From Minutocellus sp. GHC0000111 (taxonomy: Eukaryota): a DNA stretch of 64,000 bases. This document shows, in pieces, positions 1,492 to 62,482 of the stretch. Location: positions 4,216,001-4,280,000 of the forward strand of contig OZ361257.1 of assembly GCA_977018835.1 (NCBI GenBank), in the 5' to 3' direction. The first letter of the stretch is position 1, and every line of letters starts with the position of its first letter. Below the pieces are notes generated by a model. It saw only the letters and a list, made by a program, of their open reading frames with translations. It did not search any database and was not told where the DNA came from. Both the position numbers and the translations under genes were made by a program.

Positions 1492-1555
1492 TCGTCGTTT
1501 GTGGTTATGGATAAAGGAAATTCTGGTTGGAAAGGGGAGAATCGCAAGAGGAAGG
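1492..1555 (+). repeat. 64-bp non-coding element with an inverted copy at 8655-8718
   Basis: Ungapped hand alignment to the reverse complement of 8655-8718 gives 53/64 identities; core AAAGGGGAGAATCGCAA. Confidence 0.8.
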
Positions 1556-1793
1556 TAAAAGGGAAAAAGATTGGAGCCACCCACGGAGAGCCTCTCCGTG
1601 GACCACCGCCTCAGCCACTCAGCAACCTTGGCTCAACGGCTCAACAGCAACTCCAACAGGCGAGATGCTGCACTTTCGTCATTCCCGTGCTGCGTTCGGC
1701 ACTCCTTCGCAAGAGACATTTCTTCACTAGTGACAGTCCGACTCGAACTTCGCGAGGTTTCGTTTCCGAGCGTCGCGTCGGGTCCAGTGCGGC

Positions 1794-1963: not shown

Positions 1964-2300
1964 TAGGTCGACAAAGCCAGTGCCTTTTCGCTTTGCTGGC
2001 TTTGACAGTTCACAAACCTCTGGATGAGCGCGTTTCTTTCCCGCTATTGATGATCTGCCGTTCATGCTGGCACTCGTTGTAGCGCATGCTTCTGCTTCAG
2101 CGTGAGGCGTTTTACCAGCACAAGAGTTTGCTTCATCACATTTTCTGTCGTCGCCCTCATCCGCACAAACTGCCAAGCCTACCTAGCACATTGCAAAATC
2201 CTCGGTGTCGAGAATTGCATGACCCTCGCCTACGTCATCAGCACTTGAATGCGCCATGATGATTTCCTTTGAACGTGCTGATTGCTGATCGGGTGGGTTC
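1962..2300 (-). pseudogene. Truncated paralogue of the N-terminus of the AP2-domain gene at 13320
   Basis: MAHSSADDVGEGHAILDTEDFAM..CADEGDDRKCDEANSCAGKTPHAE..KRKGTGFVDLL aligns with PCTDNVDEGCASLDAEDYAL..TDQGDDRQSDAANACTRKTPHAE..KRRGTGFIDLT. The upstream AACCCACC.GATCAGCA is also shared. It is frameshifted and cut off before the AP2 domains. Confidence 0.85.
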
Positions 2301-2410
2301 TGGTGCCAGGTGCTGGCCTTGCCGATCTCATTTGCGTTGTTGTGTGTGTGTGCGTGGGCCATGGGTGGTGCGGTGGTGCGGTGCTGTTGCATGTTGGTCC
2401 CGCGCCGCCC

Positions 2411-2606
2411 TGCTAAGAGGTCCTAAAGCTAAGCTAGATAGATATAGCTAGTAGAGGTTAATAGGACCTACGTAGATGAAAAATGGGCCATCGGAGATGT
2501 CGTTGGCCCATGGATCAACGGTCAGGAGAGGGCACTGAGTCAGTGGTCTGATCACCGTACGTACCGTACGTATGTATACGTACGTACGTATCCCACGGCA
2601 TCAACA
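2411..2606 (-). repeat. 3' LTR
   Basis: Direct repeat of 8434-8629 with 3 differences in 196 bp by eye (one C/A, plus CA vs TG near the + strand end). Confidence 0.97.
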
Positions 2607-2654
2607 CACCCTCGCAGATCAATGACTAGTGCCATTGAATCTACATGTAGAGTC

Positions 2655-5600
2655 CTAATTGGAATCTACATGTAAGTAGACTGGTCGCATGTCGACATGG
2701 TAGCGGGCGGGATGGTGCTTTGTAAAATAATCGGCCAAATTTTGCGCTCCTTTCCGCCAGCACACCTGGAGTTGTCGTTCGTTGCTCTGTGCGACATCTT
2801 GGACCCAGCAGAATCTCATGTCCACAGCCTTAGACCGTCTTTGCTTGACGGTTTTATTGGCGATTCCAGATGCTGTAGAGTTGTCAACGACGATAGCAGT
2901 AGGGGGCTGCGGGTGACCCATTTCTTCTAGTCTAGTGCTGCCCGGATTGGTGCTGCATCTTTCATTCATGTTGAAAAATGATCCTCCCAATTCGGCTTCA
3001 GCGGCTGAGGACATTACATGCTTGATGATGTTGGCATTGACGAGGATGGCTCCATTCATTGGTGGCATGGGATCACTTGAGTCAGGCTGGCGGTGCGGGT
3101 CCTTAGGTCGGGAGCTTAGGTAGAAGCACCCTCCGAGCTTGCTTCTTGATTTCGGGGCTGACAAGCAGGAGGCGTCGCTGTGTGCATGTGGGATCATGTC
3201 TGACTTGACGTGTCGAATGACTGCGTCGGGATGGGTTGCAAGGTAATCTAGAAGCTTCTTGGCATCTTGTCGAGTGCGCTCGGTAGCTTTGGATTGTTCT
3301 GCTGAGATGCTGTTGAGCGCCGCCGGCAAAGTTGTTGAATCAATTGCTCGACCATAGCACAAGGAGCTGCCCACCACCTGTTGAATTTCGTTGATGCCTT
3401 TGGCGTCGAGTGGTGGTGAGTCGTCTTCCGGTTCTGGCAGCTGGGGTCCCGGGCCATACGTCGGACGATTCCATCGACATGGCGCATGCTCGGGCCGTGA
3501 GGGGCGGTCGTGTTGGAACTTGTGGCGCATCTCCTTGACGTAGTTAGGCACAGACAGATCCACCCATTTGGCCTCGTAGTTCCACTCGAGTTGAATGCCA
3601 CAATAAAGTCGGCCTTCCCAATCGGTAGTGATCTTATGCTTGGAGTTGAGGGCCTGAATGAGATGGTCTGCATGCTCTTTCCCGACATGCTTTACTCCAA
3701 AATCGTCAACGGTTAGGCAAAAGGTAATTGGGCGGGTTTTGTGCCTCCAAAGGCCGGCAGCACGCTTGCAAGGGAAACAGCCATGGGGTTTGAGGTGCTT
3801 GACAAGTTGATCGCAGGCTAGGCGCCCTGCCTGGGGTAATCCATGCATTCCGCCATCGATTCTGACCAACACTCGACCATTCTTTACTTTGTCGTGGAGG
3901 TCGTAGGCTTCCATGACTTCGTCGGGGATGAGAGCTACTGGCGCCCACATCCATTCTGGCTCTGGCATGGTGCTATTGAGATAGAAGTCACTGATGTCAA
4001 TTCCCATGAAACGAGCGTTGTCTGTAGAGATGACGCTGTTGAAAAGTAACTTTGCAGTCAACATTTCAGCGGTCGGGGTCGAGACTGTACCAGGGTAATG
4101 AATTTTGTCGCCTCCTGCAGTCCATCGAACTCGATTGGGATTTGGTTTATGGGAGCGATAGTCGGCGACAATGCGGAGGCATGTGGCTTTTTTCCCCCGA
4201 GGCAGTTCGGACCAGTGGACGAAAGCCATTGTGTTGGAGGGAATGCTAGCACTGTTTCCAACTCGGCCGTCCGTTAGCTGTCCAATTTCATCGATGTTTG
4301 CTTGAATGAATTGGTCCCTCATGTTCGTTTTGAGGAGGTCGCGGTATTCAAGCATTGCACCAGTGTCGGGATGGACGACGGCGTTAGCAAAGTGTTGGAG
4401 GTTTGGTAAAGGCGAGAAAGCTGCCATGTTGGCCACGTGGTGGGTGCTACGACGAGATGATGGCCGTGGGGGAGGGTTCCGATGTGGAATGTGCCCTCGC
4501 TGACGGCATGATCGTCGTCGAGGTGGTTTGGCGGTCGATGGTTTGGACTTGCTTGTCGATTTTGCTGGAGCTGGTAATGTTGGAGTGGTATCGATCGTTG
4601 GAGACTTGCGTTTACGTTGCCGACGGGAGGTTGGGCCATTGGAACTTTGATTGGATGTTACGACGGTTGCATCGTCGTCATGATTATCATCATCGTCGCC
4701 GTTGGGCTCGTCTACTGCAGCCAAAGGATTGTAGCAGTTGGAAGAAACTGACGAGCGAGGTGGCGCGTTGGATCGACGTGATCGACGGCTTTTAGTGGTG
4801 GCTGCATCATATGTGGAGGATTTTGCCACCCTCGGAGGTTGCTGGGGCTGAGGTAACGGAGCGTTGGGGTTGGAGACAAGGTGACGGCCTACTTCAGTCT
4901 CGTTCATCTCTTCTACGTCGTCGTCCTCGTATTTGATTTTGTAGTGCTTGTACTTCTTGTCAAATGCAACGACTCTACCCTTGTAATTGCGATCTCCAAA
5001 CACTTTGGCGACGATGGCACCGAGGCGGAATCGTTGGGAGTCGTCATCGTTCTCCAGCACCCTCGGAGCTGCGGTTGTCTGCATCGTCTCATCAGAGGCG
5101 GAGGTGGCAGATTCTGCTGGGGTCACGCTGTTGAAAATCTCGGAGAGCTTTTCTAAAGCTTGACGATGCTCGTCTCGAAGGGGAGCAAGGGGTGCCGCTG
5201 GATGTGGATTCTGTAGAGCGTGCAGGAGTTCATGAGCTGCGACTATTGCTGCATCGGCCTTGACGTTTTGGGTGCCGGAATCATTTTGGGGAGCCAGACG
5301 AGTGTGTTACCAGTGCGTTCCGCCCGAGTTTCCTCAATCCAAACCTTGTAACACCGGTAGTGTTCCATGGCTGGACCGACATAGTACCCATCAACGCCAT
5401 GCGGGGACCAAGAGCCGCGTGCCGAGGGCATCTCGTGAAAGATGACCTTGCATCCGAGGGGGACGAGAGGCGTGCGATTGAAATCAAAGCCGCCATTGAG
5501 TTGCTCGTACGCTGATAGTCGAGGGTTGACTCGGGATGCTCTCAGGAAATTGAGGGTCATTACCGCCTGCTCCAGCAATTTATCCCACAAGATGAGGGGA

Positions 5601-6853
5601 AAGTCGGGATCGGCACCACAGAGAATCGCAATGAAATGATTCTTAAAGGTTCGAATGGCTCGTTCGGCCGCATTTCGGCGGTGGGAGTGCGTTGGGGTCA
5701 ATTGAAAATCTACATCCTTTTCTTCCATGAACTCCTTCAGCTCTCGACTCACTTCATTATCCAATCGTTGCAATTTTGGGCGAAATCCTCGCTTGGAGAG
5801 GTATTCGAAAATAGTTTGGTGCGCTCGGCGCATTTCCGTTCCCGATCGGCTTTTCATTGGTTCGGCCAAGATGCTGTTGGAGTCATAGTCATAGACGACC
5901 ATTGTGCACTGGTGGCCAGAAATAGACGATACCAAGAAACGGCCGGGCTGATCTGAGAAGATCTGGCCCGTTATGTCATGACAATCAGCAAAGACATAGT
6001 TGGTGAACTGTTGGTGTTGTGCCGGGTGGAGATCCTGCTCGGTTTCGTCCACCCCAGGGAGAGATTTTGGCGTAGCCATCGACCGTTTGGGCTTGGTCGA
6101 CCTGATGTTCTTGCGCTGCTGGTCTAAGTGACCTTTAATCATCGGCATCGACTGTAGCATGTGCTTACGTACAAGCTTTGATGTGAGGCCTGGCCAAGAT
6201 CTATAAAATCCCGCATCGATTGCTTTGCACCAGGTAGATAGCTGAGGACTGCCAGCGCACCAATGTAAAAAGGCTACACGTTCCGGAACCGTCTCCTGGG
6301 CAATTGCGGCGTTGGCAGCACATTGGATGACGTTGGGGCCGGGGAGCGGCGACATGGTGGGCGAGCAATTCAGATCTACCATCCACAATTTCGTTGAGGG
6401 GTCTCGTTTACCTTGCAAAATGACGGCATTGTCCTTGGCGATGACTACCGAATCCTTATCGAAAGTGGCAATGCATCCATCGTCACACAGCTGCCCAATC
6501 GATAGGAGCGATGGTGCCATATTATTGAAAATATAGGCCTTGCTAGCCGATGGGGAAACCCCAGGGAGGCGAAGCGTGGCCTCGTGGGTGTTCGTCATTG
6601 TGCTATTATCCGGAAGGGTGACGCTGATAGGAATTGCTGTCTGTTGGACGTTGAAAATAGGGCCATCGCACGACAGGCATTGGGGCTTCTGGACAAAATG
6701 TCCCGTCGTTCCAGTATCTGCTGCGAGGACGATTGGCTCTTGAGTTGGAGGTTTGCTTTTTGACGTAAGAAAAGCTAACGAAGGCGGGGAGGAGGTGGAT
6801 TCAGACATGCTATCCTCTATTTTATACTGATTAATATCCACCGTCCCTCCCGC
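2655..6853 (-). pseudogene. pol: Copia pol polyprotein (protease, integrase, Tudor-like, RT, RNase H), frameshifted near 5260
   Basis: PR: AADTGTTGHF. IN: FSDQPGRF / RLDNE / RNAAERAIRTFKNHF. RT: GIDISDFYL / GMHGLPQAG / LTVDDFG. RH: HSDAS / SAAEAEL / VDNS / NLADYFTK. Confidence 0.93.
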
Positions 6854-8141
6854 TCAGTTACGACGCGAGCTACCACCGCAAGGATTGCACTTGGTGGCGT
6901 TATCAACGTGGTTGGGCCCTTTGCAAGTGCATTCGAAGCTGGGGTGGTTGGACGAATAGCCGCACGTGTGGCGATAATGGCCTCTGGGGAGGATCGACTG
7001 CAGTTCCCGCTTCTCCTGGCGGTTGAGGTTAGGACCTTGGCCTGGGAAGTGGCCGGCGCCGTTCTGCTGGCCACCGCCGCGGTAGCCTCCACTGCCACCA
7101 GTATGGTTGCGTCCCTCACGCAGAACGCGGTTCTCGGCCTTGAGTGAAGCTATTTCTTGGCGAAGTTTGGCAATGGTATCATCCTTCTCGTTGCTCTCTT
7201 TTTGGCGAGGTTCGCCATCATGGCTTGGTTGGTCTTGAGGGCTTCGGTGGCATCAGCCAAAAGGAGATCGGCTCGAGAAAGAAATGGATCGTCCGAGGCC
7301 GATGAGGCCAAATTCGCGCCATGATGTCCTGCCGCTTCGGTGGTGGTATTGGCCATCTCTTCTTATCACACCAATCGCGGAAGTCCGACTGCATGTTGGC
7401 CCACGTGCGTTCGGCCTCCGGTCTGTCGTCCCAGTCCTCGCATGCCTTCTTTGCCAATGAGAACCTGCGCACGGAGCGGTAGAACTTGGAGACCTTTTGC
7501 TTGTTGGTGAAGGGTTCGCCGGCCGTTTCAAACGCCTTGAAGACTTTGTTGAACATGGCGATGTGGGTGTCGATGGGTCCCCCGTCGTGCTCCTTCTCGA
7601 GCTGCTTCTCTAATTCCTCCTTCTGAGTCTCGTTGAATTTCAAGCAGCGATCGGTAATGCTGTCGATGATTTGGCGGATGGTGACTGGCTGGAAACCGAG
7701 CATGTCATCTTCGAGATGATTGATGTAGACGGCGTCGATCGAGTCGAGGAGGAGATTCTTGAGCGCCGTGTTGACTTGCTCGTACAAGTTGTAGTGGCCC
7801 TTTTCGATGTGACATCCCCGGATTGCACGATCGCGTTGGTCTAGATTGGCCACGGCGGGAATGGTGGGGCTGGGGCCAGGATTTGCCGGAGGCACATGTG
7901 GTCGGCCGTTACTTTTGGTGGTGCATTCGGCATCGCTGACGACGAGGCCCGAATGGCCGAGGTCATGGTCATTGCACCCTGCTGGAATGCTGGCCGCCGC
8001 TTGTTGAAGTTCATTGAGCGCTTTGGCAACACGCTCGCGTTGGGGAGGTTGTCCTGGGTGGTCATTCATACGTGTGATTAACTTGGTGGGGAGAATCGGC
8101 GCTGCGCCGAGAGGTTGGCCAAAAACTGCGTCGGGACTCAT
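6854..8141 (-). pseudogene. gag: Copia gag, frameshifted near 7355 and 7150
   Basis: ORF 7218-8141 (GHSGLV..P.NPG..P, ALKNLLLDSID..YI, W..M..DF) continues in other frames to a Cys/His motif HYRHTCGY..NHPSFEC..HVDNAT..NPCGGSSRRN*. Confidence 0.85.
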
Positions 8142-8433
8142 GCTGGTGTTTCAGTCAGCGAAGACAGGCAGCACGGCGGTGTTGCTGCGAGACGTGTGAT
8201 CGACAGAAGGTTCGATCCAGAGAAGTGTGATCGATTGGATGGGTCGATCTGGTCAGGACTTTCGGGGAAGGGATTGGATCGTCGTTCCAATATTGTCGAA
8301 AGAAACGGTCGTTTTGGCCGATTGAAGATGTGTCGGTTTTTCTTGCGTGACGAGTGAGAACCCAAGACACAAACCGGTGAGGTGCGAACCGAAATGGGGC
8401 GAGCACGGGTGGAAAAGATGTATCACGTAGGTC

Positions 8434-8629
8434 TGCTAAGAGGTCCTAAAGCTAAGCTAGATAGATATAGCTAGTAGAGGTTAATAGGACCTACGTAGAT
8501 GAAAAATGGGCCATCGGAGATGTCGTTGGCCAATGGATCAACGGTCAGGAGAGGGCACTGAGTCAGTGGTCTGATCACCGTACGTACCGTACGTATGTAT
8601 ACGTACGTACGTATCCCACGGTGTCAACA
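8434..8629 (-). repeat. 5' LTR
   Basis: Direct repeat of 2411-2606 with TG..CA ends, followed by the TSD CGCCC. Confidence 0.97.
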
Positions 8630-9219
8630 CGCCCCAGCCGGTCAACCCCCCTTTCCTTCCTGTTGCGATTCTCCCCTTTTCAGCTATAATTTCCTTTCTA
8701 CGTAGTCACAATCGACGACCGCACGTCGCCTGTAGGCAGGCCTACTCGAGGTCAGATTCGCGAAATCGAGCGCCCGGTTTTTGACTGCTGCTTTCGAGGG
8801 GCGATTGAAAAGCGCCTCGAAGAACAGTCATGCTGAAATATTTAAGAAAATGGCTATTTTTACTCTAATTTTGATTTGTCTTCATGTGAAACAACAATTC
8901 GGACAAGACTTTAGATTTCAGCGGCTCTAATCAAATGGACGCGTTCGTCGCACTTGGACCGGCACACCACAGCACCATCTGCCAGCCGGATGACTCGCAT
9001 GCTTTTGGTCGCACTTTCGGTGGCCGGCCGGCGCGCGAAGCAACCGACCGGCGCGCCCAACGCGAGCCACCATGGCGGCGGCAAAAATTCAAATTGCCGC
9101 CGCTACGTGCAGAACGAAGGCGACGTCTCGCGCTGGTGTGGGAGAGTTACGGCACGAGACCAACCAGGTGCTCCCGACATCCTGGTGACATTCCCGTTGG
9201 TCTCGATCCACAACTCTCC

Positions 9220-10857
9220 ATGAGCAAAAAAAACAACGGCCGCAATCCCGCGGTCAACACCGCAGACAGAGTTGCGGTGCAGGACGCCCTGGCTGAACTG
9301 CTCGTCCGTCTTCGCAGAAAGGAACTTCATTGCTGCAATTTCATCGGCAACAACAACGACTCCTTGATGAATGTGTTGGGATGCAGTCCCATCATGTGCG
9401 GCGCCGTCATGTGCACTGCGGGCATCTTGGGTTTGAAGAAGAAGAAGAAACACGAAGACTGCGACATGTGTTTTTTGTGAGGACAGACAACCAGAATGGA
9501 TGGGATGAAATGGCATCAAGACACTGCCTTGCCGACGACGTTCAGCGAACCCCATGAAAAAAGAGCACATTTGTTCGCCTCGGTTCTATCAATCCTCGTG
9601 CAGCCGACGCTCTCCATGATGATGGATGGATGGCTTTCGACATGGTCACGGTCGAGCAACAATTTCGCCTCGAAATGCCGCTGCCGCGGCTCAATTTGAC
9701 GAAGGCATGTGGTGCATTCCTCAAGTCGGTCGCACCACATGTGTCGGTGGGATGTGCGGCGATGGACTACGAAATCAACAGGCAGATGTTGCTCGAGGCC
9801 CAGAAGTTCCCTGGTGGGTGTGCACAATGGCCAGGATGATGGGTGGGACAATGACGACGATGTTGGGACGGTGGGCACCCTGACCACGACGGAGGCCGGC
9901 GAGATCAGTGAGGACGATGACGACGAAGACGAGGACCATGTGCCCTGTTATGAGGACGAAGCTGATGTTGCAAGAGAGGACGCTACACATGAAGCATGCA
10001 TGCAGCAGTGCTTTGAGAAGAATCGTCAGAAGCACGGTGATGGCGAGCCAGAGATGGGAGCTGTCGATGATGCCGAGGATGACGATGCCCCTCACTTCCA
10101 TTTCCTGAAAAAGGCCGGCATTGAGGCGGCCGACTCAGGCAAAATAAGGGCAGTGCTGGCAGAATGCTGGAGAGCTTTATCTGTCAATGTTTCTGATGGC
10201 AACAACAAGAAGAAACCAAGGACAATAGAGTTCATCCACCACAACACCTCCACCAAAGGAACTCTCCTAGAGCACAATCGCGAGGAAGATGGCATGACGG
10301 ATGACGACATCAAAGAGCTCTGCAAAGCTTGCTCTAATTTGCTCCACACTCTTGACGCAACACATTCCAGGTTTCTGAAATGGCACATGAAATGGGATGA
10401 TGAGGCAAAGAAGGCTGTGAGAGAGCTTGAAGCACTGATTGCAAGTGCCCTCAAGCAAGCACGGGCAATCGGTGTTAGCACAACGCCCAAGTGGCACTTA
10501 CTCGAAGATCACATCTTGGACCAACACATTTGGCTAGTGAAGAATGGATGGGGCGGCATCTATTGGCTCGACGAATCGTTTGTAGAGCGAGCCCACCAAG
10601 AGGGCGTTAAGGAAGATCGTCGGACTCAGGGCGTCAAGGGATATGAGGCCCAACAGACGGCGCAGTTCAAGGCTGAGGAGAGGGCATCCAATCCAAAGGT
10701 CGAGGAGAGGCGGGAGCGAAACTCTCGGGTGGCAAGAACAAGGAAAAGGACAAGGACCGAAGCTGTTAAAGCAGAAACTGATGACAAGCGCCAACAAATG
10801 ATCATGATGGCCACCGATGGAGATGAGGATGTAGAGATGGGAGCAGGGCATGTGTAA
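9220..10857 (+). mobile_element. Degenerate, internally deleted DNA-transposase remnant with a Chapaev/Transib/RAG1-like C-terminus
   Basis: TTPKWHLLEDHILDQ..GGIYWLDESFVERAHQ resembles the PKxHxLxxH..GxxxExxxExxH C-terminal motif of these DDE enzymes. Upstream frames are broken and TpA is strongly depleted. Confidence 0.6.
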
Positions 10858-11352
10858 AATTAGAAAATGAAATTACACTGCTGCCACACAATGACAAATG
10901 AATTGCACAATCCAACTTTTACAAACAGCATCGCGATTGAGCAAAAAAGTAAATAGTACACCCAAACAAACAAATCATGTCCTTCTTAACTCACCCATTT
11001 ATCTCCCAGACCAAAAAGTCCCTTTGTCGGGTTGATTGTTGCATAAACTTATCCCAACACTATCTGTCTCTCCTCGGGCGCAAAATTATTGTCGGAACTC
11101 CGGGAGGTCGAGTGGGGATGCGATCGGTCGGGATCAGCGAGAGTCGGTCATACGGGGGGTGCGGCGCAATCCCGGCAGTTTATCATCAACAACAACGTGG
11201 GAAAGTACCAGAGGGTCTGGGGCATCACAACGGGAGCACGACGAGCACAAAGACGGAGCAATGGTGCCACCCCAGAGAAACGAACGGCCGACAGATGGAG
11301 GAAAAGCAGGCCGATGGTTCGTGGCGTTGATACGCAGCGGAGGCCAATCTGA

Positions 11353-13017
11353 GGATACAGTAAGCTTCAACTATATCCAAACATGATAATGAATGCGTAT
11401 TTGGTACGAAAATATAGTTATGCGCCGGCGCAACGCCGACGGACCACCATGGTGTTGGACGGTCAAAGAATGGGTGACGAACGAGATTGGGTTTTGGTGG
11501 GTTTCTTCGTGACGTGTTCGTCTTCTGCCGAAAAACGCTTCATCCGACCGGCGAAACAAGACGAGATGGGGCTGTGATACTGCTTCCCAACGAGTGCCGA
11601 TGATTCATCTGATTCGGCCGCCTTCCGTTCTGTCATCGACGATCTTGCAACGGCGACCCGGCGGTATACTGCACCATGTCTCTTTGCAATTGCCAAGTGC
11701 AGGGAGCAGGCAAAGGTGGACTATTCGGTGCTGTCCAGCGCAGAGCATGGTGCACGATTTTCGGGATGGATGAAGGCGTATGGTGCTCTACCTGCATCTG
11801 AGAAGGCGATGTGGGAGATGAAGAGGAGATCTCATCTGGCTATGCAGCCATACATTCGAGATGTAATTGTTGATGCTCTGATACGAAATCCTCGGGAATC
11901 TTGGCGGGAGCTGGAGGTGGATGTCAACTTTTGGTGTTCCTACTCGGCAATACGGCGGTGGATAATGTCGCGGGAAGGGTTCCGGTACTATGCCGAAAGG
12001 ATCATCCCTCTCCTTACTACACATCAGATGGAGAAACATTTGGCATTTGCGCGGAAATTCCGAAACAATTGGGGGCTCGGCGGTGGCAAGTTTCTCCTTG
12101 TTATGTTCGATGAGAAGTGGTTTTGGGGCTTGGTTCTTCGATCGTATGCCAAGCAAGTTGCAGAATTGGGTATTGATCCTCGGTCCTTCTCGGCATATCA
12201 CCGAAATCACATCAACAAGTGCATGGTGGTGGCTGTCACTGCCTTGGCTTTTATTGACAGCATTGAGAATGGCGGCATTGCGTTCAAGCTTGGACTTTTT
12301 CGGGCTCAGGCGCATAAAATTGCGAGGCAGATGGTAAGGGAGGCGGTGCGGCAGGCAGATGGTAGAATCAAATATTGCGGCCCGGTGGTTCGGAAGAAAG
12401 ACGATCTATACCTTGTGGATTGCGCGGTGACTGGATGCAGCCATGGCACCCTTGATAATCCCAAGTTCCCACTGAAAGCTTTGTTTGAGAACAAGATATT
12501 TCCGGATGTTGAGGCTTTGGTCGGACCTGGCGGAAAGTTTGAAGGCTATGTCCCTATTTTCCAGGGCGACAATGCTGGGCCCCATGCCGAGACTGAATTT
12601 GTGGAATATGTGGAAGGATACTGTCGGGACAAGGGATGGCGTTGGGAACCTCAGGCCCCGCAAATGCCCCATATGAATGTTCTTGATCTGTCTGTTTTCC
12701 CTTGCATGTCAAAGCAGCATACAATGTTGTGCCGCGATCGGGAGGGGCTGAAGGTTTTGACAGAGGATCAGACTTGGGATGCAGCGGAGGAAGTTTGGAT
12801 GGGGCTGGAAAACTGGAAGATCGCATCGGCATACATCCAGGCTCATAGAATTGCAAAGAAGGTAATCGTTGCAAAAGGCAACAATGATTTTCTTGGAAAC
12901 GGTGAAGGCATTCATGTTGGGGTGCGAAAGGATTTCAGGCCGACTGAAAATGGCATGGTTCGGATAGATGGGAAAATTATCGCTCCTCCTCCTGCTGATC
13001 CAACCATGGATAATTAG
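11353..13017 (+). mobile_element. Tc1/mariner-superfamily transposase, DD38D spacing; N-terminal part interrupted by TGA at 11575-11577
   Basis: MFDEKWF, QGDNAGPH, QAPQMPHMNVLDLSVF resemble the plant/oomycete DD39D mariner motifs. The frame upstream of 11716 (SVIDDLATA..IAKCRE) aligns with the copy at 41.2 kb. Confidence 0.9.
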
Positions 13018-13319
13018 TCCTGCTGTGCTTTTAAGTTATATTGTGTTTAATAATACTAGATTGGATTGTAGATCTGGATACTAGCTGCTGCAATACATGT
13101 ACTTTGCACTGTACATGTATTCAATGCCGGTAGATCTAAGATTCAGGCGGTTGCGGGCCCAAAAAGTCGCTGTTTTGGTCCCGACCCTGCGCTGCGCTCG
13201 ATTTCTCGCGAAACGGACTTCGTACACATTACCGGCCTCCGGCCCTCTACTGACTCGTACTCGTTCAACCCAGAACCGAACCCACATGTGAACCCACCAG
13301 ATCAGCACGTTAATAGCAA

Positions 13320-14766
13320 ATGGCTTGCCATGTACTGATAACGTAGACGAGGGTTGTGCAAGCCTCGACGCTGAGGATTATGCCCTGCTCGGCTTGGTAG
13401 TTCTCACAGATCAGGGCGACGACAGACAGAGCGATGCAGCGAATGCCTGTACTCGTAAAACGCCTCACGCTGAAGGAGCAGCTACATGCACTACTTCAAG
13501 CACCAGAATACACGTCAGGGCACCAAGACCTGGGACGAAACGTGGCCTTCCAAATGATTACAAGTTATCGAAGCAAACGAAGCGAAGGGGCACCGGCTTT
13601 ATTGACCTAACTGGTGTGCCGCCGCAGCCCCTCATTCTCAAGAATCAACTGAGTGCGACGTGCTACCAGGACAATTCCCGACGTCGGCCGATTGGAAAGG
13701 GTAGCTCCAAGTACACTGGAGCGTTTTATAAGAAAAAAATGCAAAAGTGGGAGGCTCGGATAATGGTTCAAGGTAAGGCGCGGTTTATTGGGTACTACGA
13801 CAAGGAGGAAGACGCCGCAGCGGATTATGCCAGGGCGGCCTTCAAGTACAAGCCAAAGAAACAATCTCTTGACACCTATGGCGGCTGGGATCTCAGTGGT
13901 GTTCCGAACGATTTGCCGCTGATTCGAAATGAAAGAAATGCAACTGGATACGTTGGTGTAAAACCCAACAAGGGGCGCTTCACGGCATACATTGGCCGTA
14001 CGAATAAAACCCTGGGCACATTCGATACTGCCGAGGAAGCCGCATTGATTTATGCAAGGGCCAAGTACTATTTGGAGCAAAGCGAGCTATCGAAGCCAAA
14101 AGACACTCCCTTCTTCGACCTGACTGGCGTACCGCCGCAGCCACTCATTCTCAAGAATCAACTGAGTGCGACGTGCTACCAGGACAATTCCCGACGTCGA
14201 CCGATTAGGGAGGGTAGTTCCAAGTACACCGGGGTATACTATGATAAGGAATCGGAAAAGTGGAAGGCACAGATCATAGTGCAGGGGAAGCTACGTTTTA
14301 TCGGGCATTACGACAAGGAGGAAGACGCCGCGGCAGATTATGCCAGGGCGGCGTTCAAGTACAAGCCAAAAAAACAATCTCTTGACACCTATGGCGGTCT
14401 GGACCTGAGCGGCGTATCCAAAACGCTACCGCTGATTCGAAGCGAGAGAAGTGAAATTGGATACGCTGGTATAAAACTCAAGAAGGAGCGCTTCCAGGTA
14501 CGAATCAGTATTGGTGGAGGGAAAACCAAGACTCTGGGTACATTCGATACTGCCGAGGAAGCCGCGTTGATTTATGCAAGGGCCAAGTACTATTTGGGTC
14601 AAAATGGTCGATCTTCAGACGTAAATGAAAAAAGGAAGCAGCGGTATTAGAAACGACTTCTGAAGAGGCAAGCGAAGATAGCGAAGCAAATTCTGATGAT
14701 GAAGATCCTGTGGACTCGTACTTTATTGATAGTGCTGGCGACAAGGTCGACGGAGTTGCTGTATAA
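13320..14766 (+). CDS. Multi-AP2-domain DNA-binding protein (4 AP2-like domains), probably disrupted at both ends
   Basis: SSKYTG.....KW.A.I.VQGK.RFIG.YD.EEDAA.DYARAA and GY.G.K..K.RF...I.....TLGTFDT.EEAA.IYARA each occur twice. ATG 13320 is 1 nt out of frame relative to the paralogue. An acidic tail (ETTSEEASEDSE..GVAV*) follows in another frame after an A-run at ~14630. Confidence 0.8.
13604..14597 (+). repeat. Internal tandem duplication (period ~513 bp) of a two-AP2 unit
   Basis: 13604-14075 and 14117-14597 share long identical stretches, e.g. CTCATTCTCAAGAATCAACTGAGTGCGACGTGCTACCAGGACAATTCCCGACGTCG. Confidence 0.92.
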
Positions 14767-19726: not shown

Positions 19727-20551
19727 TCAGTCATAATCAACTGTGCAGTCCCTCAAATCAATCTCGTACTCTGAGCCAAGTGGAGAGTAGTTACTCCCAT
19801 AAAGGTCTCTAGTTGTCTGGGCAAAGCTTGAGTCGCCGGATGTGCATGCAATGTTGCGAAATCCACACTTGAGGGTGGCTGTAATGTCGGAATTGCCATT
19901 TTCAAGATTACGGCGACAGCCGAGTTCGCGTCCTTCTCCCTCTATAAGAGCACGGCGACGACAAGCAAGTTCACGGCCACTGCCCTCCTTGAGATTGCGA
20001 CGATCGCAGCAATAATCGTAGTCGGTCACAATATAGAACTCAATGCCCAAGTTTCTGTTTCTATCCTTGGTCACTGCCTCGGTGGAATCCTGGAGATGGC
20101 GGCCGCGGGTGGGGCATGATCCGAAGTTGGTGTCCGTCAGCTCGAAGGTGGCCCTTTGACCGGGGATCATGGGACAATAGAGAATGGTCTTGGGGACCCT
20201 GCAGTCGTCGCAGGGCTTCTCAAACGTCTCACAGGCGTCGATGCTGAAGCTACTACCTATGCTATCCTTGAAAGAAACAGACTCTTGCGTTGGGTTCCAC
20301 TCGAATGCAAAGCCTCCAACTTCTCCGTCGTTGTTGGCGATGATGTCGATAACGCCGCTGATTTCCTCCTCTTCACAGGGACAAGAATTGCTGCCGCTGC
20401 CCCCTCCGCTGCTTGCGTTGTCAGCGGCGACAGCATCGAGTGCAGCGTCAGGAACCATGGCGACATCGGCAGCGGCATCCTGAGTGCGGCGGTTGACGCG
20501 AGCCTCGGCGGTGAAAAAGGTGAGGGCGACGATAGCAGTAGAGAGCTTCAT
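19727..20551 (-). CDS. Secreted Cys-rich protein with repeated RxL motifs
   Basis: Signal peptide MKLSTAIVALTFFTAEA; RHLQ, RNL and REL repeats; many Cys. Confidence 0.75.
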   Translation of the reverse strand: MKLSTAIVALTFFTAEARVNRRTQDAAADVAMVPDAALDAVAADNASSGGGSGSNSCPCEEEEISGVIDIIANNDGEVGGFAFEWNPTQESVSFKDSIGSSFSIDACETFEKPCDDCRVPKTILYCPMIPGQRATFELTDTNFGSCPTRGRHLQDSTEAVTKDRNRNLGIEFYIVTDYDYCCDRRNLKEGSGRELACRRRALIEGEGRELGCRRNLENGNSDITATLKCGFRNIACTSGDSSFAQTTRDLYGSNYSPLGSEYEIDLRDCTVDYD

Positions 20552-21612
20552 TGTGCTTTATTGGATTGGCAGTCTGTTAATGAAGGTTGTTTTGAAAAAT
20601 TAACAGAAATGGAGGGGGGAAATTATGCGTAAAATTAAGTTGGATCTAGTTATGTTCTCGGATCGCAACATTAATTTGGACAAATATCATTTCAAACGCA
20701 ATCATGTGCGGCTATTGCCTTAGCATCTCATGCAATTGAGATTTTCCTTACCTTTCACAACTCTTCGATTGGGAAAAAGTGAACCGAAGTGGAATATTGT
20801 GATCGCCGATGGCTCTACTGGATGGAACAGATTGCCTTTGCTTCAGCGATGCGATGGGAGCTTTTTGCCCGTCGCCAAAGAAAACCCAACCGCCGGAACC
20901 CTCGCCAAAATATGAATGTGTGTAGTCGGTGAGAATGAAGATCGAAACAAGTCAGGGCATCTTCTTCTGTCGCAATTGTCCCCTAAAACCACTATCTTCA
21001 AATATGTTTTCGTGGTGACGCCAAATCGAGACATGGAATGTTGGTTTTTGAGGGCTTTGTGACACACTGCCAGGACTGTGCCGCATTCTTGTTGAGGATT
21101 TGGCGAAGGCCGAGCATTTATTTGCCATTGTATCTTGGCTGTATCTGAGATTAGAGATGCGCTCTGGTAGATTTCTATCGCACATGACGTGCACCTTCTT
21201 CAGAATGAAACTCTCGAACGCCTTCTTGGTGCTCCTGCCACTCTGCGGCGCTGTTGCCGCCAGTTCCAGCAAACGTCGGGCTGGTCGTCGAAACCTCGAC
21301 ATTTGAATTACCCGTCAATTAGTGCGTGTCACCGGTAGCAATGGGAGCGTTGGCGCAAGCCTCAGCCTCGGCCGGGGGTGGAGTGCTCCTGCTGATCCCA
21401 ATTTTCTTGCTGATCCCGACTTTTTGCTGGGACTAAAAAGTTCTTCTGCCATGAAGGATTGGCCCGTCGAATCCCACAGTGGCCATGACTGAGCCGATCG
21501 GCCGCAATGATTGTTTTACTTCGCCTGACTTTTCTCGCGGATCACAATTTACTCTGAGCAACCTTTCCATACACAAAAGCAACATACCAGCTGAAAAACA
21601 AATCCTTTCACC

Positions 21613-22137: not shown

Positions 22138-22622
22138 TATGGCACACAATAATATGAACTAAAATGACAATACATCCCAAAGTACTGGTGCATGCTGTTG
22201 GGATTGTAGCAATAACATGTTCTTGAGGTGACGCGCTCCTCACAACGGCATTCTTTCTCTGTTTCATCATAAAGAAATCTGTTACGCGCACAGGTTTCTT
22301 AATTTGCACATTTGGAAAAGGAAAATTTCAGGCGTGGATTTTTTAGCGCGCAACAAGCAGATGTTCAACAAACGAGCTGAGCTCTCAACCGATGTTGCTT
22401 TTCAATACATATCATGCGCCAAGGCAGTGCTTTGATTCATATATGTGTAGCAGCATTCGATTGGAATCGAATCGGCGCTTCGATACGATGCAACTTAGAA
22501 TCGGTTGATCCATCGCCGAAGGTTCCGCCCGGTCTTGTCTCGCGACACAATAGGCCATCCTACTAGTACATTTGCCGCCTTCTTTTCTCGGGCTACTTTG
22601 ACTTTCACTTTGGTCCGCCATC

Positions 22623-23930
22623 ATGGAAGCTGGCGCCGGCACAAATCGGCGCAAGACCGGATCAAAAAAGCGCAGAAGAACATGGCGATCTGTTTCGTCT
22701 GCTGTTGCCATCGTGGTTGTGGTGATGATATCATCCCAGCTGATGCTCGTATTGCTATTTCTTGATGGCGAAAGAACTACTGGTCACCAACTCCTTGGTG
22801 AGTTGCAGTCGCCGCTACTAATATCAAGAATATATTTTGAAACGAATACGAGCGCATTACAAACAACCAAGCCCGGAAAGAAGGCCAATGAAGATCGCGT
22901 TGCCGTCAAAACACAGTGGTATCTTCTCGATGACTTAATACTCGCCTCAGGAAAGCCCTTCTCAGCAACTGAAAGAATTTCGACTAGCCCGTCCATACTT
23001 CGGCCAGGCGACCTCGGTTCTATGGGAATACAAATACAAACGCTGGAATCGGAATTGCCAACGTACACCTGGACAATGGATGTGGTGCACGCAGCATGGA
23101 CGCCGCTGCGTAGCGATTCAGTCCGTGCAACGGGGTTGGGTCCCGATGCAAGGGCCGCCTCCGATGGTGGGCTCGCTGTCCTGGGGAGCTGGCCTGAAAA
23201 GTTGTCGCGGCTATCGTATCTCCATTTGCACAAATGCGGTGGAACATCTCTCATGAATGCGATCGGGGATCTAAGGCAACGGCTGGGCGCCAAAGTCGAC
23301 GTTCATGGGACAGGCAGAAAACTGACCAAGATTTTCGAGGAAGCGCAGTCCGATCAAATCCAAGAGAGGCAACGAATATCCCGTTCAGGCAATGATACCG
23401 ATTCTAAAATGTTGGGAGGAAACGCAATCTTTACCGTGCTAAGAGATCCGGTATCTCGGTTTCTCTCCTCCACTGGAGAAATGATGAGGCATAATGAACT
23501 GCTGAAAACCTCGCTATCAAAAGAAGATTGCTTGAAAGGCTCGGTAACAGAACTCTTCCGGTGTGTATTGACAAGGTTGAAGCAATTGGGTCCCTCATTT
23601 GATCCACACTTCTATCCTCAGGTGATGGAAATAATGAAAATGACTTGGGAACAAAAGAATTTGTCCATCGGACTCTTTCCATTCGACGAAATAAAGAAGA
23701 TTCTCCTCGAGCTTGGGTGCGACAGGAATCGAAACGAAAGGCCACGGGCAGCTTCTTCCTACTTTGAAAGCATCATGAATGGAACCAAACACGAGGACTG
23801 GGCGGCTACTCTATCCAAGATGTCAGTGGACGATTTAAGTGAGGATATGAAGAGGGATGTCTGTCAAATTTATGACATGGACGTGAAGCTCATGCGCTAT
23901 TTTGGTATGCATGTTCCCTATTGTTCCTAG
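22623..23930 (+). CDS. Type II membrane sulfotransferase (Sulfotransfer_2-like)
   Basis: N-terminal TM segment; 5'-PSB YLHLHKCGGTS; 3'-PB FTVLRDPVSRFLS; C-terminal IY.MD..L..Y. Confidence 0.9.
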   Translation: MEAGAGTNRRKTGSKKRRRTWRSVSSAVAIVVVVMISSQLMLVLLFLDGERTTGHQLLGELQSPLLISRIYFETNTSALQTTKPGKKANEDRVAVKTQWYLLDDLILASGKPFSATERISTSPSILRPGDLGSMGIQIQTLESELPTYTWTMDVVHAAWTPLRSDSVRATGLGPDARAASDGGLAVLGSWPEKLSRLSYLHLHKCGGTSLMNAIGDLRQRLGAKVDVHGTGRKLTKIFEEAQSDQIQERQRISRSGNDTDSKMLGGNAIFTVLRDPVSRFLSSTGEMMRHNELLKTSLSKEDCLKGSVTELFRCVLTRLKQLGPSFDPHFYPQVMEIMKMTWEQKNLSIGLFPFDEIKKILLELGCDRNRNERPRAASSYFESIMNGTKHEDWAATLSKMSVDDLSEDMKRDVCQIYDMDVKLMRYFGMHVPYCS

Positions 23931-26171: not shown

Positions 26172-26728
26172 TTTTATCTTTGAGTATTGATTTGACGTAA
26201 AAGTGCAACGTTGGCCTAGATATATATAGGTTCAATTCAATGAGTTGATGGCAGACAAGTGAAAGTCAAAGTAGCCCGAGAGGAAACAAAAAAAATGTTC
26301 GTTCGCCTGCCGTAATTGCAAATAATGCGAGATGTTGACCCCGGCCTCACGATGTTACTGTTCTGATTCGGCACACAAAAGCTACGCAGCCAATGTGACT
26401 TTTGGCGATGAATATGCTAATTCCTAATGGCAGACCGCTCGCGCCATCATGGCGGCCGGCCTTGCTTCTTCGCTTGGTTGTGATGGCTTTCTGGCGATCG
26501 GAATGCTTTTTCCTCGGTCGAACGAGTCTGAAAGAGCATGGAAGGGGCGCCTACATGGTTAATTCGGAGTCGGGAAGATCCGACTTCCAGTCAAACGGCA
26601 GTGCCGAACTGCGAACCGAACGCGAGATGCAAAGCAAAGGCCCGCCGGCACCGTAAGCGCAGGCATTGAGTCTTCCTTCTCTTCATAGCTCCGCTCTCGC
26701 CTTATCATCGCGCCAAAATTTTCAGATT

Positions 26729-40779: not shown

Positions 40780-43700
40780 CAAGGACAGGCGCAAACGGAC
40801 AGTAGCTGCTCAGGCGGGGATGGATAGTGTTGACAGCGCCGGTGCCAATAAGCGTGCAAAGAGCGATGGCAGTCCGATGGAGACTCTTGTCGGAAAGCTT
40901 TTGCATGGCATGCGATACAGGAAGAAGGATGGATATCTTCGAAAGGAGGCGAATCGAGCAACCAAAGGCAAGAAGGGATTGAACGACGAGGACAAGAGCA
41001 TGCTTTTTGCCCAGGGATTGCTTCTGGAAGTGCATTTGAAGAGCACCGGAGGGACGCAGCGAAGTTTCAGTCGGATGGGAGGGTCACTATTCGTGAGCTC
41101 TGCAGAGCGTGGGGGGAGGGTAAGAATGGGCTGCGAGACATCCAGAACGAGTCTCGGAAGAATGCCATTGCCCGGGGCATACCAGCAGATCAGGCCGAGC
41201 TTGCATTTGTCACCCCCGCTCCCAAGGATTCGTCGGTTCGGCCAAAGTCTACCATTGACAATTACAAGACGGCTGAGCAGTACTTTACTGCTAAGCGCCT
41301 GCATGCAATCAATAAGTGCAGAGAGGCAAAGGAAGACTGCTATGATTCTGTATCGAAGGAGGCTGACAATGAGTTGCTCAAAACGTACCTGACCGAGTGC
41401 GACACCATCAGCAGCGACGATGACAAGCAGCTGTGGGAGCTGAAGAGGCGGGAGCACTTGGCAAGGCAGCCGTACATGCAGAACGACATTGTTGCGGCCC
41501 TTTCCAGCAATCCTCAGCGATCGTTCCGTGGTTTGGAGCAGGACATTGGTCTGTGGTGCTCGCACAAGACGATTGAGCGGTGGCTCAAGTCATTCGACAC
41601 CTTCACTTTCTACAAGGAGCGGCTGGTACCGCGCCTGTCGGAGGCTCAAAAAGCTAAGCATCTGGCCTTTGCTCAGCTCGTGCGGAATTTCTGGAACATT
41701 CGGGATGAGAACGGCAATTTACCGAATGGAAAGAAGCGAGTTCTCCTCGTGCATTGCGATGAGAAATGGTTCTGGGGTCTCGTCCTCCGAGCTTTTGCGA
41801 AGGCTTGCGAGGAAATCGGCGTGAAAAAGCGAGATTACGCGGCCTTTCACAGGAGCCACATCAACAAGGTCATGGCCATTGCATTTGTTGCCGCTGTCTT
41901 TGACGGTTCTCTTGAGAGTGGGTGCGAGGTTGTAAAACTGCCACTGGTACGAGCTCAAGCTCCTAAAATAGCGGAGCGAGCTCAGTACGAAGCAGTATCA
42001 CAGCCTGATGGTTCAATACGGTACCCAAATACCAACCCCGATGGGACACCAAAGGAACCTCTTCGCCGGAAAGGAGAGTCGTTTCTTGTTGATTGTTGCG
42101 TTACTGGATCGAACGAAGGCACCAAAAAGGATCCGAAATGCTCTTTGCTCCTCGTATTCAAGGAGACTATTTTCCCAGCGATTCTCAACCTTGTCGGTCC
42201 GGGCAAGCATTGCGAAGATTGCCATGTTATTATCCAGGGCGACCAGGCCGGGCCTCACGAGGACGGAACCTTCACGCAATTTGTTACTAACTTCTGTGCT
42301 GAGCAAGGCTGGACGTGGCAGCCACAGGCACCGCAGATGCCTCACGCCAACGTCCTTGACTTGAGCGTGTTCCCCGCGATGAGCCGGCGGCACTCGGAAT
42401 GGGCACGAAAAATGGTAGGCACCTCCGTCATTTCCACCGACCAGATCTGGGACACTGCCGAGGACGTTTACGATAGCATGCCTAACTGCAAAATTGCTTC
42501 GGCCTTCATTCAGTACTGGAGGATAATGGGCCTGGTGATTAAGGCCGGTGGTAGCAATGAGTTTGTTGGAAGGTTGGGTGACGAAAACTTGCACACTGGA
42601 ATTAGGATCGACTTCAACGAAACGGCCAAGGGCTCGTCATCCTTCTAATAAATTGATAGTGTTAATGTCTTTACACATGTATTAAATAAATGTTACACGT
42701 CTACAAATTATTTATAGATCTACATGTAAGATGCAGCAGCATTGGTTTGTTTATGTCACGGTGGGCTTCTTTGTTCTTCTATTTCTACCGGTATTCTTTT
42801 TTGCCTCCTTGGCCTTCTTATGATCATTAGAAAGCCACACAGCGTGGAGGGACTGACGAATCTTTCCGCGCTTAACACCATATGCATCGGCAAGTTTATT
42901 GTCAGTGAGGGCAGGGTGAGCAGTTGGTTGTTTACTCCCATCCTCATGTCCCAACTTATATGCATCTAATGCAATCTTGTCAGTAGATAATGCAATAGAG
43001 AATTCTATTGTCTTGTTATCATACAATCCGAGTTCTCTGCTTCTCCACCCTTTCGGGTAGGCACCACGACCCTCTCTTACTTGGCGATCGACTTCGATCA
43101 TGCCTAGCACTGTGGTGACCGCGACTTCGCTACCCCAACCAGGAACTTGTTTGAAGGGGAGGTAGACCCCTTTCTCTTTTCTTCTTGGTTCGGGCCTCTG
43201 ACTACATGTGGGTGACTTGTAGTTCTTTATATCTTGTGGTAGTGGTGCTTCTCCGTACGTCAAAAAGCACGCAAGCCTCCGATGTTCCTCAACCTCTCGT
43301 TCAATCTGTCGTTCGGTTGGTTCGGTTGGAGGCAAGGGCTCCAAGATGGTAGGGGATGACAATTGAAGGTTGCTGAACGACGGGCATGAGCGGCTTGGGG
43401 TAAGAGCATACTGAGTATGAACTGACATTGGACTTGTTACCATGGGCGTGGCGGAGGGAAGGTCGAATGAGCTCACGGGCTTTCTCCTCTCGCCGCTTGG
43501 CTTTGCGTCGGCGGTTGCTATGCTCATCTTTGAGAATGAATCATCTTCATCAGAATGAGATGAAACGGTAGCGGTACCGCGAAAGTCGGCACGCAATATG
43601 TCAAGATGCAAGTACTTCCTTGCTTGGGCTTGTTCGGCGGCGAAGCCATCCTCTTCGTTGTACTCGCGTCGATATTTCAACACACGAGGAGATGTGAGGT

Positions 43701-60898: not shown

Positions 60899-61111
60899 CG
60901 TTTCAATTACGTAGCGGCAAGCCCAACCCTTTAGTTATCCCCCGATAGTTTCAATGCGGTCTATTATGAATGCCTCGTTTGCTTTTTTGGATACCGGCGT
61001 ATCTCTGGGGGCATGCGGCCTTCAACACAACTTGTGTGAAAAAAAATCGGCGGCTCCGAGAGCGAGGGTCCTTTCCGCCGTCCGCGCCTCCCAACACCCA
61101 GCCAGAATTCA

Positions 61112-62482
61112 GAGGCGGTCCAAACAAGAGAGTTTTTGGGGGAAGCGCGAATTTGAGGCAAGTAGGTAATGGTTTTGTGTACTTCAAGACGTTGATCAAC
61201 TTCGAGATGTTTTTCCAAAAGCACCCGGAGGTCTTCGATGAAATGCCGTTCGCTCCAAGGTCGACAAACGTCTTTGAGAGGGGCGGAGAAAGAGCCAAGC
61301 TCCTCTTTCCGCAGTGAAAATGGGCGGTATCGATCGGAGTCCGCCCATCACGCTCTCCTTCACAATGTTGAGCCATTTTTTTCAGGCCCATCCCGCATCT
61401 GGCTTTGTATCCTTGCCCGGCCTTCTGTGCACCGTATCTTGTGCGTCTGCTACCAGAGGCCGCCGCCGTCATGGCAAACACGCGGACAGAGGCGTCAGAG
61501 GCGGCCGCCGCTTCCGCTTCCGCAGCAGCGGGCGGTGCTACCGCCGCATCCGATGCCGACGAGGATGGTTTGACCATCCTTTCATTCAACTATTCAGTCA
61601 ACAAGTTTGAACCTGTCCGATGTAGCATGTGCTCTACTTCTACCCTCACTGAGAACATCTGCCGCTTCATCGTGCCACAAAGTACTGTTGCTTACCGCCC
61701 AGGCCCCCATCACCTCGACCGCCGTGAGTAAGGATGAGATCGTACACGGCCGCGCCGGCGAAGTATCGTATGGCGCAACTTAGCCGAAGCTTGGTTGACA
61801 CCAAACCGTTGGGAGCGAATTGACCCTCAGTGGTATCGCCAGCCTTTCGAGAACTGAACTTTGCAGCAACATCAGCCTCGAGAACATCATGGAGTTGGTA
61901 GAAGACATGGGGGTCCATTCGCAATGCCTTTCTTGCGCTGACGCCGAGCTCGAGAATCGTCTTCTCAACGCTTTTCCGAACTCTTGGTATGTTTTTACAA
62001 CCAAGTTTCGAACCGAGATGTTCCATTTCTTCCTCATCAAGAACGATTACAAGCGTTGCAAGATGAGAGAATCGATCATTTCGTCTATCACGAGCAAATG
62101 AGGTACGACCACGTCGAGAACGAGGAGGTCTCGCCATCGTTGGCACAACTAGATCTACACGTAGCGGACGGGCAAACGTGTTGTGCTGACTGCTCGAACA
62201 CGAGAATAGTGGCTGATTGTTGCGCATCTTGCTTCAAAATATAACTAGGAGTATATATTTTATCATACTATCTATCTGGTACATGCATCCAACGCCTGGC
62301 ATCATCGTCTCCGCGATCGGTTTGCCCAGTGTCTGGCCAAGCACTTCGTTTTTTATCCTTGCCTCTTTTTCGTTTCGGCCTCGATCGCTTTGGACGGGCT
62401 TTTCTCTCTCGAATTTCCAAGGAAGTTTTCTGACGTGGCTGTTTTTCGCTTCCCTCAAAAACTCTCTTGTTTGGACTGCCTC
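61112..62482 (-). mobile_element. Internally deleted PIF/Harbinger DNA transposon
   Basis: 36-bp TIRs (61112-61147 and 62447-62482, 2 mismatches) and 3-bp TSD TCA on both sides. Transposase N-terminus at 62137-~61720 (ALRMD..F..L, KLRLSCAIRYFAG..YDL); convergent second ORF from 61471. Confidence 0.92.

Follow-up and report, generated by a model that had tools for sequence, protein, structure and literature searches.

To our knowledge, the targeted mutators of genomes, namely repeat-induced point mutation (RIP), the AID/APOBEC enzymes and the decay of 5-methylcytosine (5mC), all run from C to T. RIP depends on homologous pairing, takes place before meiosis and involves the RID methyltransferase. 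The single prior report of a regional mutator running from A to G is a preprint on the alga Bigelowiella natans, a rhizarian (Mettrop et al., bioRxiv 10.64898/2026.01.13.699255). It describes 231 mutations in two inserts of viral DNA, of which 230 were A>G or T>C and lay, without exception, on TpA. In the mutation-accumulation lines described there, this spectrum arises de novo at a rate raised ~1000-fold, in some lines only; the large viral insert is single-copy, and ADAT2 is put forward as a candidate enzyme that is still unproven. The preprint also reports transposase and reverse transcriptase (RT) genes poor in TpA, and its main text mentions neither diatoms nor flanking context. Here, we describe a window of 64,000 nucleotides, the whole stretch of DNA analysed and the frame for all coordinates below, from the diatom Minutocellus sp. 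GHC0000111 (contig OZ361257.1, positions 4,216,001 to 4,280,000), in which a minus-strand Ty1/copia element (2411-8629) and a very high-copy dispersed repeat on the plus strand, called TE2 (8760-11030, ends approximate), have been hypermutated from TA to TG or CA.

The process at this locus shares with that of B. natans the change of TpA to TpG/CpA, the restriction to transitions, the action on both strands at the DNA level and, it seems, a regional concentration in foreign or selfish DNA. It differs in acting in a diatom and on dispersed multicopy transposons, whereas the preprint concerns a member of the Rhizaria, single-copy viral inserts and a rate measured in clonal lines. Beyond what is described there, 10-29% of strand-opportunities are hit here, the target is a longer motif, RTAY (R, purine; Y, pyrimidine), AAT is a weak further target, and the long terminal repeats (LTRs) of the copia element are spared. 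The scar is, therefore, not categorically new: it is a version of what is seen in B. natans, found in a different lineage and in transposons and with a sharper motif. A first-pass annotation of this DNA, whose author knew of no described mechanism, is superseded in this respect. No diatom report of this spectrum was found in the literature searched, which covered few subscription journals and, in part, the best 15 of about 600 matching papers.

The spectrum was read from sibling copies of the two repeats, of which 119 TE2 and 40 copia protein fragments (members listed, at most 15 per cluster) were aligned to the window DNA. Residues near gaps or runs of mismatches were dropped, as were columns with fewer than five copies, and some of the fragments may derive from a single copy or be duplicated between haplotypes. 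Three proteins of the window are recorded from an 800-kb contig, and the siblings lie on other, mostly megabase-scale contigs of the same source, presumably a single assembly. With the strands pooled, TA>TG reached 0.149 per residue in TE2 and 0.103 in copia, as against 0.0072 and 0.0036 for AA>AG, 0.0008 and 0.0015 for GA>GG, and 0.0060 and 0.0036 for CG>CA. Transversions at TA (0.0004 in TE2 and 0.0008 in copia, or one in 2,520 and two in 2,433 observations) do not rise above the background found elsewhere (0.0005 and 0.0012). The A:T to G:C transitions are concentrated on TpA, with a weak tail at AAT. At 14 Tyr codons of TE2, 210 Tyr, 215 His, 211 Cys and a single Arg were counted, where 71 Arg would be expected under independent mutation of the bases, and the Tyr codons of copia gave 215 Tyr, 50 His, 57 Cys and no Arg (10 expected). 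This near absence of Arg implies that a changed TA is immune to a second hit, which fixes both the direction of the change and the dinucleotide rule. At 16 columns with Tyr, His or Cys, the outgroup P0150 has Tyr in nine, Phe in three, His and Ile in one each, and two are unaligned. A TA to TG/CA hypermutation that is real, strong and not ordinary is thus confirmed.

With regard to the strand and the timing of the hits, both TpG and CpA products occur, with no bias between the coding and the template strand (p 0.11). The two LTRs, of 196 bp each (3' LTR 2411-2606, 5' LTR 8434-8629, both on the minus strand), differ at three bases, two of which form a CA at 2599-2600 in the former opposite a TG at 8622-8623 in the latter. 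Since reverse transcription leaves both LTRs identical at insertion, this single dinucleotide places the hits after insertion, on both strands and in DNA. Among the copies of TE2 the hits are unlinked (mean r2 0.030 versus 0.025 when permuted, with a four-gamete share of 0.97 in both), and those of copia are partly linked, as is predicted by the unequal load, which ranges from 0 to 42% per copy (p 2e-12). The hits were, then, made in DNA, after insertion and independently in each copy. Copies that diverge more at other sites do not carry a significantly different TA load (Spearman 0.15 and -0.08). The A:T to G:C process in a TA context, acting at the DNA level on both strands and concentrated in repeats, stands as first proposed.

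Evidence from reads was drawn from four runs (X1, X3, X5 and X7, from three studies) of the 22 listed, X19-X22 being left aside for their small or zero shares; X7 is Illumina RNA sequencing, the library type of the other three is not on record, and X1 is perhaps the window's own sample. In every run, 88-93% of the differences are transitions. Among the 40 variants listed out of 197, 19 of the 21 C>T or G>A changes restore TA, and six of the 11 T>C or A>G changes set a TA of the window against CA or TG elsewhere, a further one being the CA partner of a window TG; eight are transversions. CA or TG alleles are carried by X7 at six sites that are TA in the window, and the window's CA at 8825 is found at single-copy depth in X1 and X5, which together show that the scar is no base-calling error of one assembly. 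The outcomes named beforehand as speaking against the proposal, that is, intact family members sharing the His/Cys residues, changes not enriched at TpA and variants absent from the reads, were not found.

Like ascomycete RIP, the process degrades transposons once they have inserted, by transitions that are specific to a dinucleotide and affect both strands. RIP, however, makes TpA from CpA and creates stops, whereas here TpA is removed and, by the genetic code, no stop codon can arise, so that the damage is missense: Tyr to His or Cys, Ile to Val, Thr or Met, Leu to Pro, and Val to Ala. The outgroup and the logic of the double products give TA to TG/CA and not the C:G to T:A change at CpA or CpG that is typical of fungal RIP. 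Decay of 5mC at CpG is not the main change either (CG>CA 0.004-0.006 versus TA>TG 0.10-0.15), and the odds ratio rhoCG is near 1 in most segments, falling to 0.64 in 9961-10860. The sparing of an LTR pair is a further difference from RIP, which the process resembles in outcome without being RIP.

The motif was resolved further at sites that are still TA in the window, where the hit rate falls from 0.267 at RTAY (16 of 17 sites hit) through 0.132 at YTAY and 0.069 at RTAR to zero at YTAR (0 of 16 sites), an order that persists without the Tyr codons (p 5e-6). The two strands of one TA are hence hit unequally, each by its own +1 base (YTAY 0.132 versus its mirror RTAR 0.069). By trinucleotide, rates descend from TAT (0.26) and TAC (0.16) to TAG (0.065), TAA (0.048) and AAT (0.020), and reach zero for GAG and AAG. 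AAT is a weak second target, with 15 of 83 sites hit as opposed to 16 of 643 AAR and GAN sites, and CAY is hit weakly (0.003-0.011). In the TA-linked read variants, the base 3' of the mutated A is a pyrimidine in 25 out of 25 (P 6e-6). This fingerprint of TAT > TAC > TAG > TAA > AAT, with YTAR immune, can be compared with that of purified candidate enzymes and with the B. natans mutations.

The replacement of conserved residues in the copia RT and RNase H, from which the first-pass annotation had started, is real, and the sibling copies agree with it. Distant RT/RNase H relatives conserve Tyr at 21 columns, where the window shows five Cys, three His, one Trp and 12 Tyr, and these eight His/Cys compare with 20 in 2,479 residues at the same columns of 119 relatives (Fisher p ~2e-11), of which 107 have none, nine have one and three have two to five. 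The three are P0075, P0018 and P0054, from other samples, with five, four and two His/Cys, respectively, a pattern suggesting that the same scar may be present in other organisms. In six copia siblings these codons likewise read His or Cys, and one codon can be His in one copy and Cys in another. The His of the GMHGL motif is common to all six; nonetheless, a Tyr allele at 3845 is present in all four runs. No His/Cys was seen at six Tyr columns in seven out of seven named diatom integrases, a comparison in which called open reading frames (ORFs) favour intact copies and which thus leaves the range of the scar unmapped. At 79 loci of other copia families (46-64% identity), mostly on short contigs that may be a collapsed consensus hiding the hits of single copies, RTAY has a median share of TA of 0.31 and a minimum of 0.19, versus 0.16 here; a metagenome scan with one family protein gave no match.

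The copia element comprises gag, protease-integrase and Tudor-RT-RNase H frames, broken by frameshifts and all on the minus strand. The second part of pol (2655-5306) encodes a Tudor-like domain, RT and RNase H, and the first part, frameshifted relative to it, encodes a protease and integrase (5243-6853) assigned by likeness to named diatom proteins. An ORF at 7218-8150 is gag-like by position, without a Pfam match; the claim that gag follows the same pattern finds support in its low RTAY count (5 in 6854-8150), a check by composition alone. The element is bounded by a 5-bp target-site duplication, CGCCC, at 2406-2410 and 8630-8634 on the plus strand, and the ends of its 3' LTR agree with loose ends in run X7. 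As in the diatom CoDi copia elements (Maumus et al., PMC2806351), the LTRs begin with TG and end with CA, a target-site duplication is present, the order is gag-protease-integrase-RT-RNase H and the insertion is haplotype-specific; all seven integrase relatives with a named organism, among the 120 matches listed, come from diatoms. Unlike CoDi copia, the window copy is mutated and frameshifted and has a Tudor-like domain before RT. That domain (4887-5021, minus strand, boundaries approximate) matches the PTM/DIR17-like Tudor domain PF21743 (E 1e-11), lies between integrase and RT and is also found in a sibling. In some gypsy elements, chromodomains steer integration, and the Tudor domain could similarly guide copia toward marked chromatin.

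TE2 contains a broken ORF (9220-10857) and is unclassified: no Pfam, PDB or fold match was obtained (the structure model has a pLDDT confidence of 44), no terminal repeats were found, and the lone lead, a weak one, is a RAG1-like match (a single Atlas row among 30, at 0.91 and sharing 147 features) that would point to a Transib/RAG-like DNA transposon. More than 100 TE2 protein fragments are spread across many contigs, and the relatives P0150 and P0154 look intact at 58-70% identity. In the window copy, 16 of the 17 ancestral RTAY sites have been hit. In all four runs, the read depth over copia is tens of times that of the flank and over TE2 it is higher still, depth being no exact copy number.

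The hits do not extend beyond a domain between about 1450 and about 10900, and the LTRs within it are excepted. RTAY occurs 12.0 times per kb in 14700-64000, 4.1 times in the copia interior, 0.5 times in TE2 and not at all in 1501-2410 (Poisson P 1.8e-5), and its density is normal in the gene at 1-700, in a Tc1/mariner-like transposase ORF (11578-13017, plus strand; 13.2 per kb) and in an AP2-domain gene (13292-14650, plus strand) that is rich in TA. In copia the depletion is visible by alignment or RTAY count and not in bulk odds ratios, as rhoTA in its four internal coding segments (0.38-0.61) spans the 0.58 of 14700-64000. The TA counts made by hand at the outset were correct (5 in 8941-9960, none in 9150-9586, 32 in 11761-12780), as was the lack of TA in 2233-2413; the latter run of 183 bp is, nevertheless, unremarkable, since the window holds ten longer TA-free runs, some in ordinary ORFs. 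The flank signal lies instead in a 991-bp RTAY-free run starting at 1453. A 653-bp RTAY-free run at 20032-20685, the third longest outside the main domain and away from transposons, may be due to chance or be a small hit patch.

The left flank (1453-2410) has no RTAY where ~11 are expected and is at single-copy read depth over 1900-2331, so that a high copy number does not seem to be required for hits. Within it, a degraded copy of the AP2 gene's 5' part (1964-2247, minus strand; 71% identical) has TG or CA at 8 of the 15 TA sites of its sister in a 70% alignment, and the reverse is seen at none of eight, which bears out the earlier remark on this fragment. In runs X1 and X5 a joint connects 2331 to 8630, the first base beyond copia and the start of the right target-site duplication, which we read as the empty-site allele of a copia insertion that is still polymorphic; this insertion already carries 21 hits among 101 scored TA sites. 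Over 1900-2331 the X1 contig and the window are one letter apart. Because the empty-site allele shares the depleted flank, the flank depletion predates the insertion, and the depleted zone opens at one arm of a 72-bp inverted repeat (1492-1563, plus strand, 82% identical to the right arm at 8649-8718 on the minus strand); the proposal that the hits had spread from copia into its flank is, therefore, not upheld. Perhaps the flank is an old element in its own right, or else the hits reached it from TE2, its close neighbour on the empty allele. The inverted repeat brackets both the AP2 fragment and the site where copia inserted, and may mark an old element that carried a gene. There is also a hint of newer flank hits, as X5 has a TA allele at 2006 at a depth of 55.5, close to the 55.6 of the empty-site joint, and X1 has no TA allele there.

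On a modest balance of probability, the best mechanism appears to be adenine deamination directed to silenced domains. A putative host enzyme, probably of the TadA/ADAT fold, would deaminate adenine in the DNA of domains that are likely silenced, and the resulting inosine (dA to dI) would be copied as G. The restriction to transitions, the graded rule for a 5' T and the strand symmetry all fit the deamination of adenine in DNA. Moreover, TadA and ADAT2 make A>G changes with a 5' T, and the order TAY > TAR with a cold AAA is as in the editors ABE7.10 and ABE8e-YA, TadA-derived DNA editors being described as favouring YAY and disfavouring AAA (PMC10188366, PMC12528748). Targeting would proceed via a chromatin mark or small RNA rather than through homologous pairing, given that the LTR pair and the 80% tandem repeat inside the AP2 gene are spared and that DNA at single-copy depth is hit. 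Diatom LTR elements are reported to be CpG-methylated in Phaeodactylum (PMC2806351). A role in defence is plausible, as eight of 21 conserved Tyr residues of RT/RNase H have been lost.

Several observations weigh against this reading. A>G cannot be told from T>C on the opposite strand, so a thymine-directed route fits equally. The +1 preference of ADAR, which favours UAG (PMC10661471), and of fungal Tad2/Tad3, whose mRNA editing prefers A or G at that position (PMC11156358), is the wrong one for a TAY scar, and both act on RNA; engineered TadA accepts CAY, which is weak here. The LTRs, which should be silenced, were hit at 2 of 22 RTAY sites, whereas the coding part was hit at 17 of 27 (p 1e-4), and the neighbouring Tc1-like element shows no visible hits. 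That single-copy genes are spared is judged from composition and from one host gene; this gene is under selection, keeps ten of ten conserved Tyr and, compared with a 93% orthologue, shows none of 49 possible TA losses. Decay at CpG is slight and thus gives no independent sign of heavy methylation. Finally, both hit families are high-copy and present in the RNA runs, so their control is incomplete at best.

The patchiness seen at the outset, with TA-rich LTRs, is borne out by the 22 TA kept in the 3' LTR, 10 of them RTAY. In both LTRs, a block (2556-2591 and 8579-8614) consists of a run of CGTACG-like palindromes in which every RTAY is intact, perhaps a protected promoter block that is bound by protein or methylated. 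Adjacency to CpG fits poorly as a cause of the sparing, as RTAY sites beside CG in copia were hit at 0.23 (10 sites) versus 0.31 for the others (32 sites).

Next to directed deamination, a modified base is an unlikely alternative, in which the thymine of RTA would be oxidised to 5-hydroxymethyluracil or 5-formyluracil, or the adenine of TAY methylated, as an epigenetic mark on repeats, and its decay or misreading would give T>C or A>G much as 5mC gives C>T. Here the ambiguity of the attacked strand counts in its favour, and the strict dinucleotide rule and palindromic RTAY optimum would suit a sequence-specific modifier of double strands; 5-formyluracil forms mispairs with G, and GTAC is the recognition site of some methylases of algal viruses. 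The unequal hits on the two strands of one TA are harder to reconcile with such a modifier, the graded hierarchy down to AAT resembles the neighbour preferences of a deaminase, and no such mark in diatoms was found in the literature searched.

The first-pass annotation had proposed a "reverse RIP", which in its strict form, with repeats recognised through homologous pairing at sex and then mutated, now seems improbable. Both heavily hit elements are multicopy, by depth and by their 119 and 40 fragments, the hit flank contains a duplicated gene fragment and an inverted-repeat arm, and the variation of the copia load among copies is what episodic rounds would give. Against it, the two 196-bp LTRs were hit less than any other part, the tandem AP2 repeat and the Tc1-like ORF are untouched, the flank is single-copy by depth, and clonal cultures of B. 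natans gain mutations in a single-copy insert. What survives of the original interpretation is, accordingly, the TA process in DNA, and what is not upheld is the pairing-dependent system, along with the spreading and the supposed lack of a precedent.

Slightly less probable still is error-prone repair by a polymerase eta-like enzyme, which in silent chromatin would put G opposite T at WA motifs. The order TA >> AA > GA agrees with such a motif, and TAC and TAT are hot spots in antibody hypermutation. Polymerase eta, however, makes many transversions and hits AA strongly, whereas transversions at TA are here at background and TA>TG exceeds AA>AG by a factor of 20-30.

It is very improbable that the changes arose through editing of the element's RNA, or through RT error, and were fixed at transposition. 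The copia element has an RNA stage, and ADAR and fungal ADAT favour a 5' U; such a route would, though, leave A>G on the sense strand only, shared between LTRs and preferring UAG, and here the strands are hit equally, the LTRs differ, the flank is hit and the +1 preference is the reverse. The hits of TE2, an unclassified repeat that may itself have an RNA step, are, in addition, unlinked among copies. An artefact of sequencing or assembly at TA sites that are modified, for which one might cite the probably common assembly of the compared copies, their many frameshifts and the unrecorded libraries (X1 perhaps being the window's own), has a negligible chance, as the same variants recur in four runs from three studies, including the Illumina RNA run, the CA at 8825 is at single-copy depth, and the B. 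natans hits were Illumina-called with a subset checked by Sanger sequencing.

A wider proposal can be made, tentatively and at rather less than an even chance: a natural diatom DNA adenine deaminase, RTAY-preferring and guided to transposons by chromatin or small RNA, would be the A-to-G counterpart of RIP and APOBEC and, being shared with Rhizaria, would represent an old defence pathway of the SAR group (stramenopiles, alveolates and Rhizaria) as well as a natural adenine base editor. DNA adenine deaminases for base editing had to be engineered, and a natural one would, if real, matter as a tool. The locus extends regional A-to-G mutation to ordinary transposons and to a second SAR lineage. 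Furthermore, TA sites must be masked before diatom transposons are dated by divergence or LTR identity, or annotated by protein similarity. Otherwise the results will be wrong, because TA sites here diverge at tens to hundreds of times the rate of the others.

Elsewhere in the window, the Tc1/mariner-like ORF at 11578-13017 has a counterpart at 40852-42648; the two are ~50% identical to each other and their RTAY density is near normal. No tRNA genes were found in the window, and a look-up of seven of its proteins in protein clusters found three, with one informative relative. A 38-bp inverted repeat (22586-22623 and 26246-26281) lies just upstream of two convergent ORFs and may be a shared promoter motif. 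Within 61102-62492, where the TA content is normal, inverted repeats of 46 bp flank a short ORF without a Pfam match, which we take to resemble a fragment of a PIF/Harbinger transposase.

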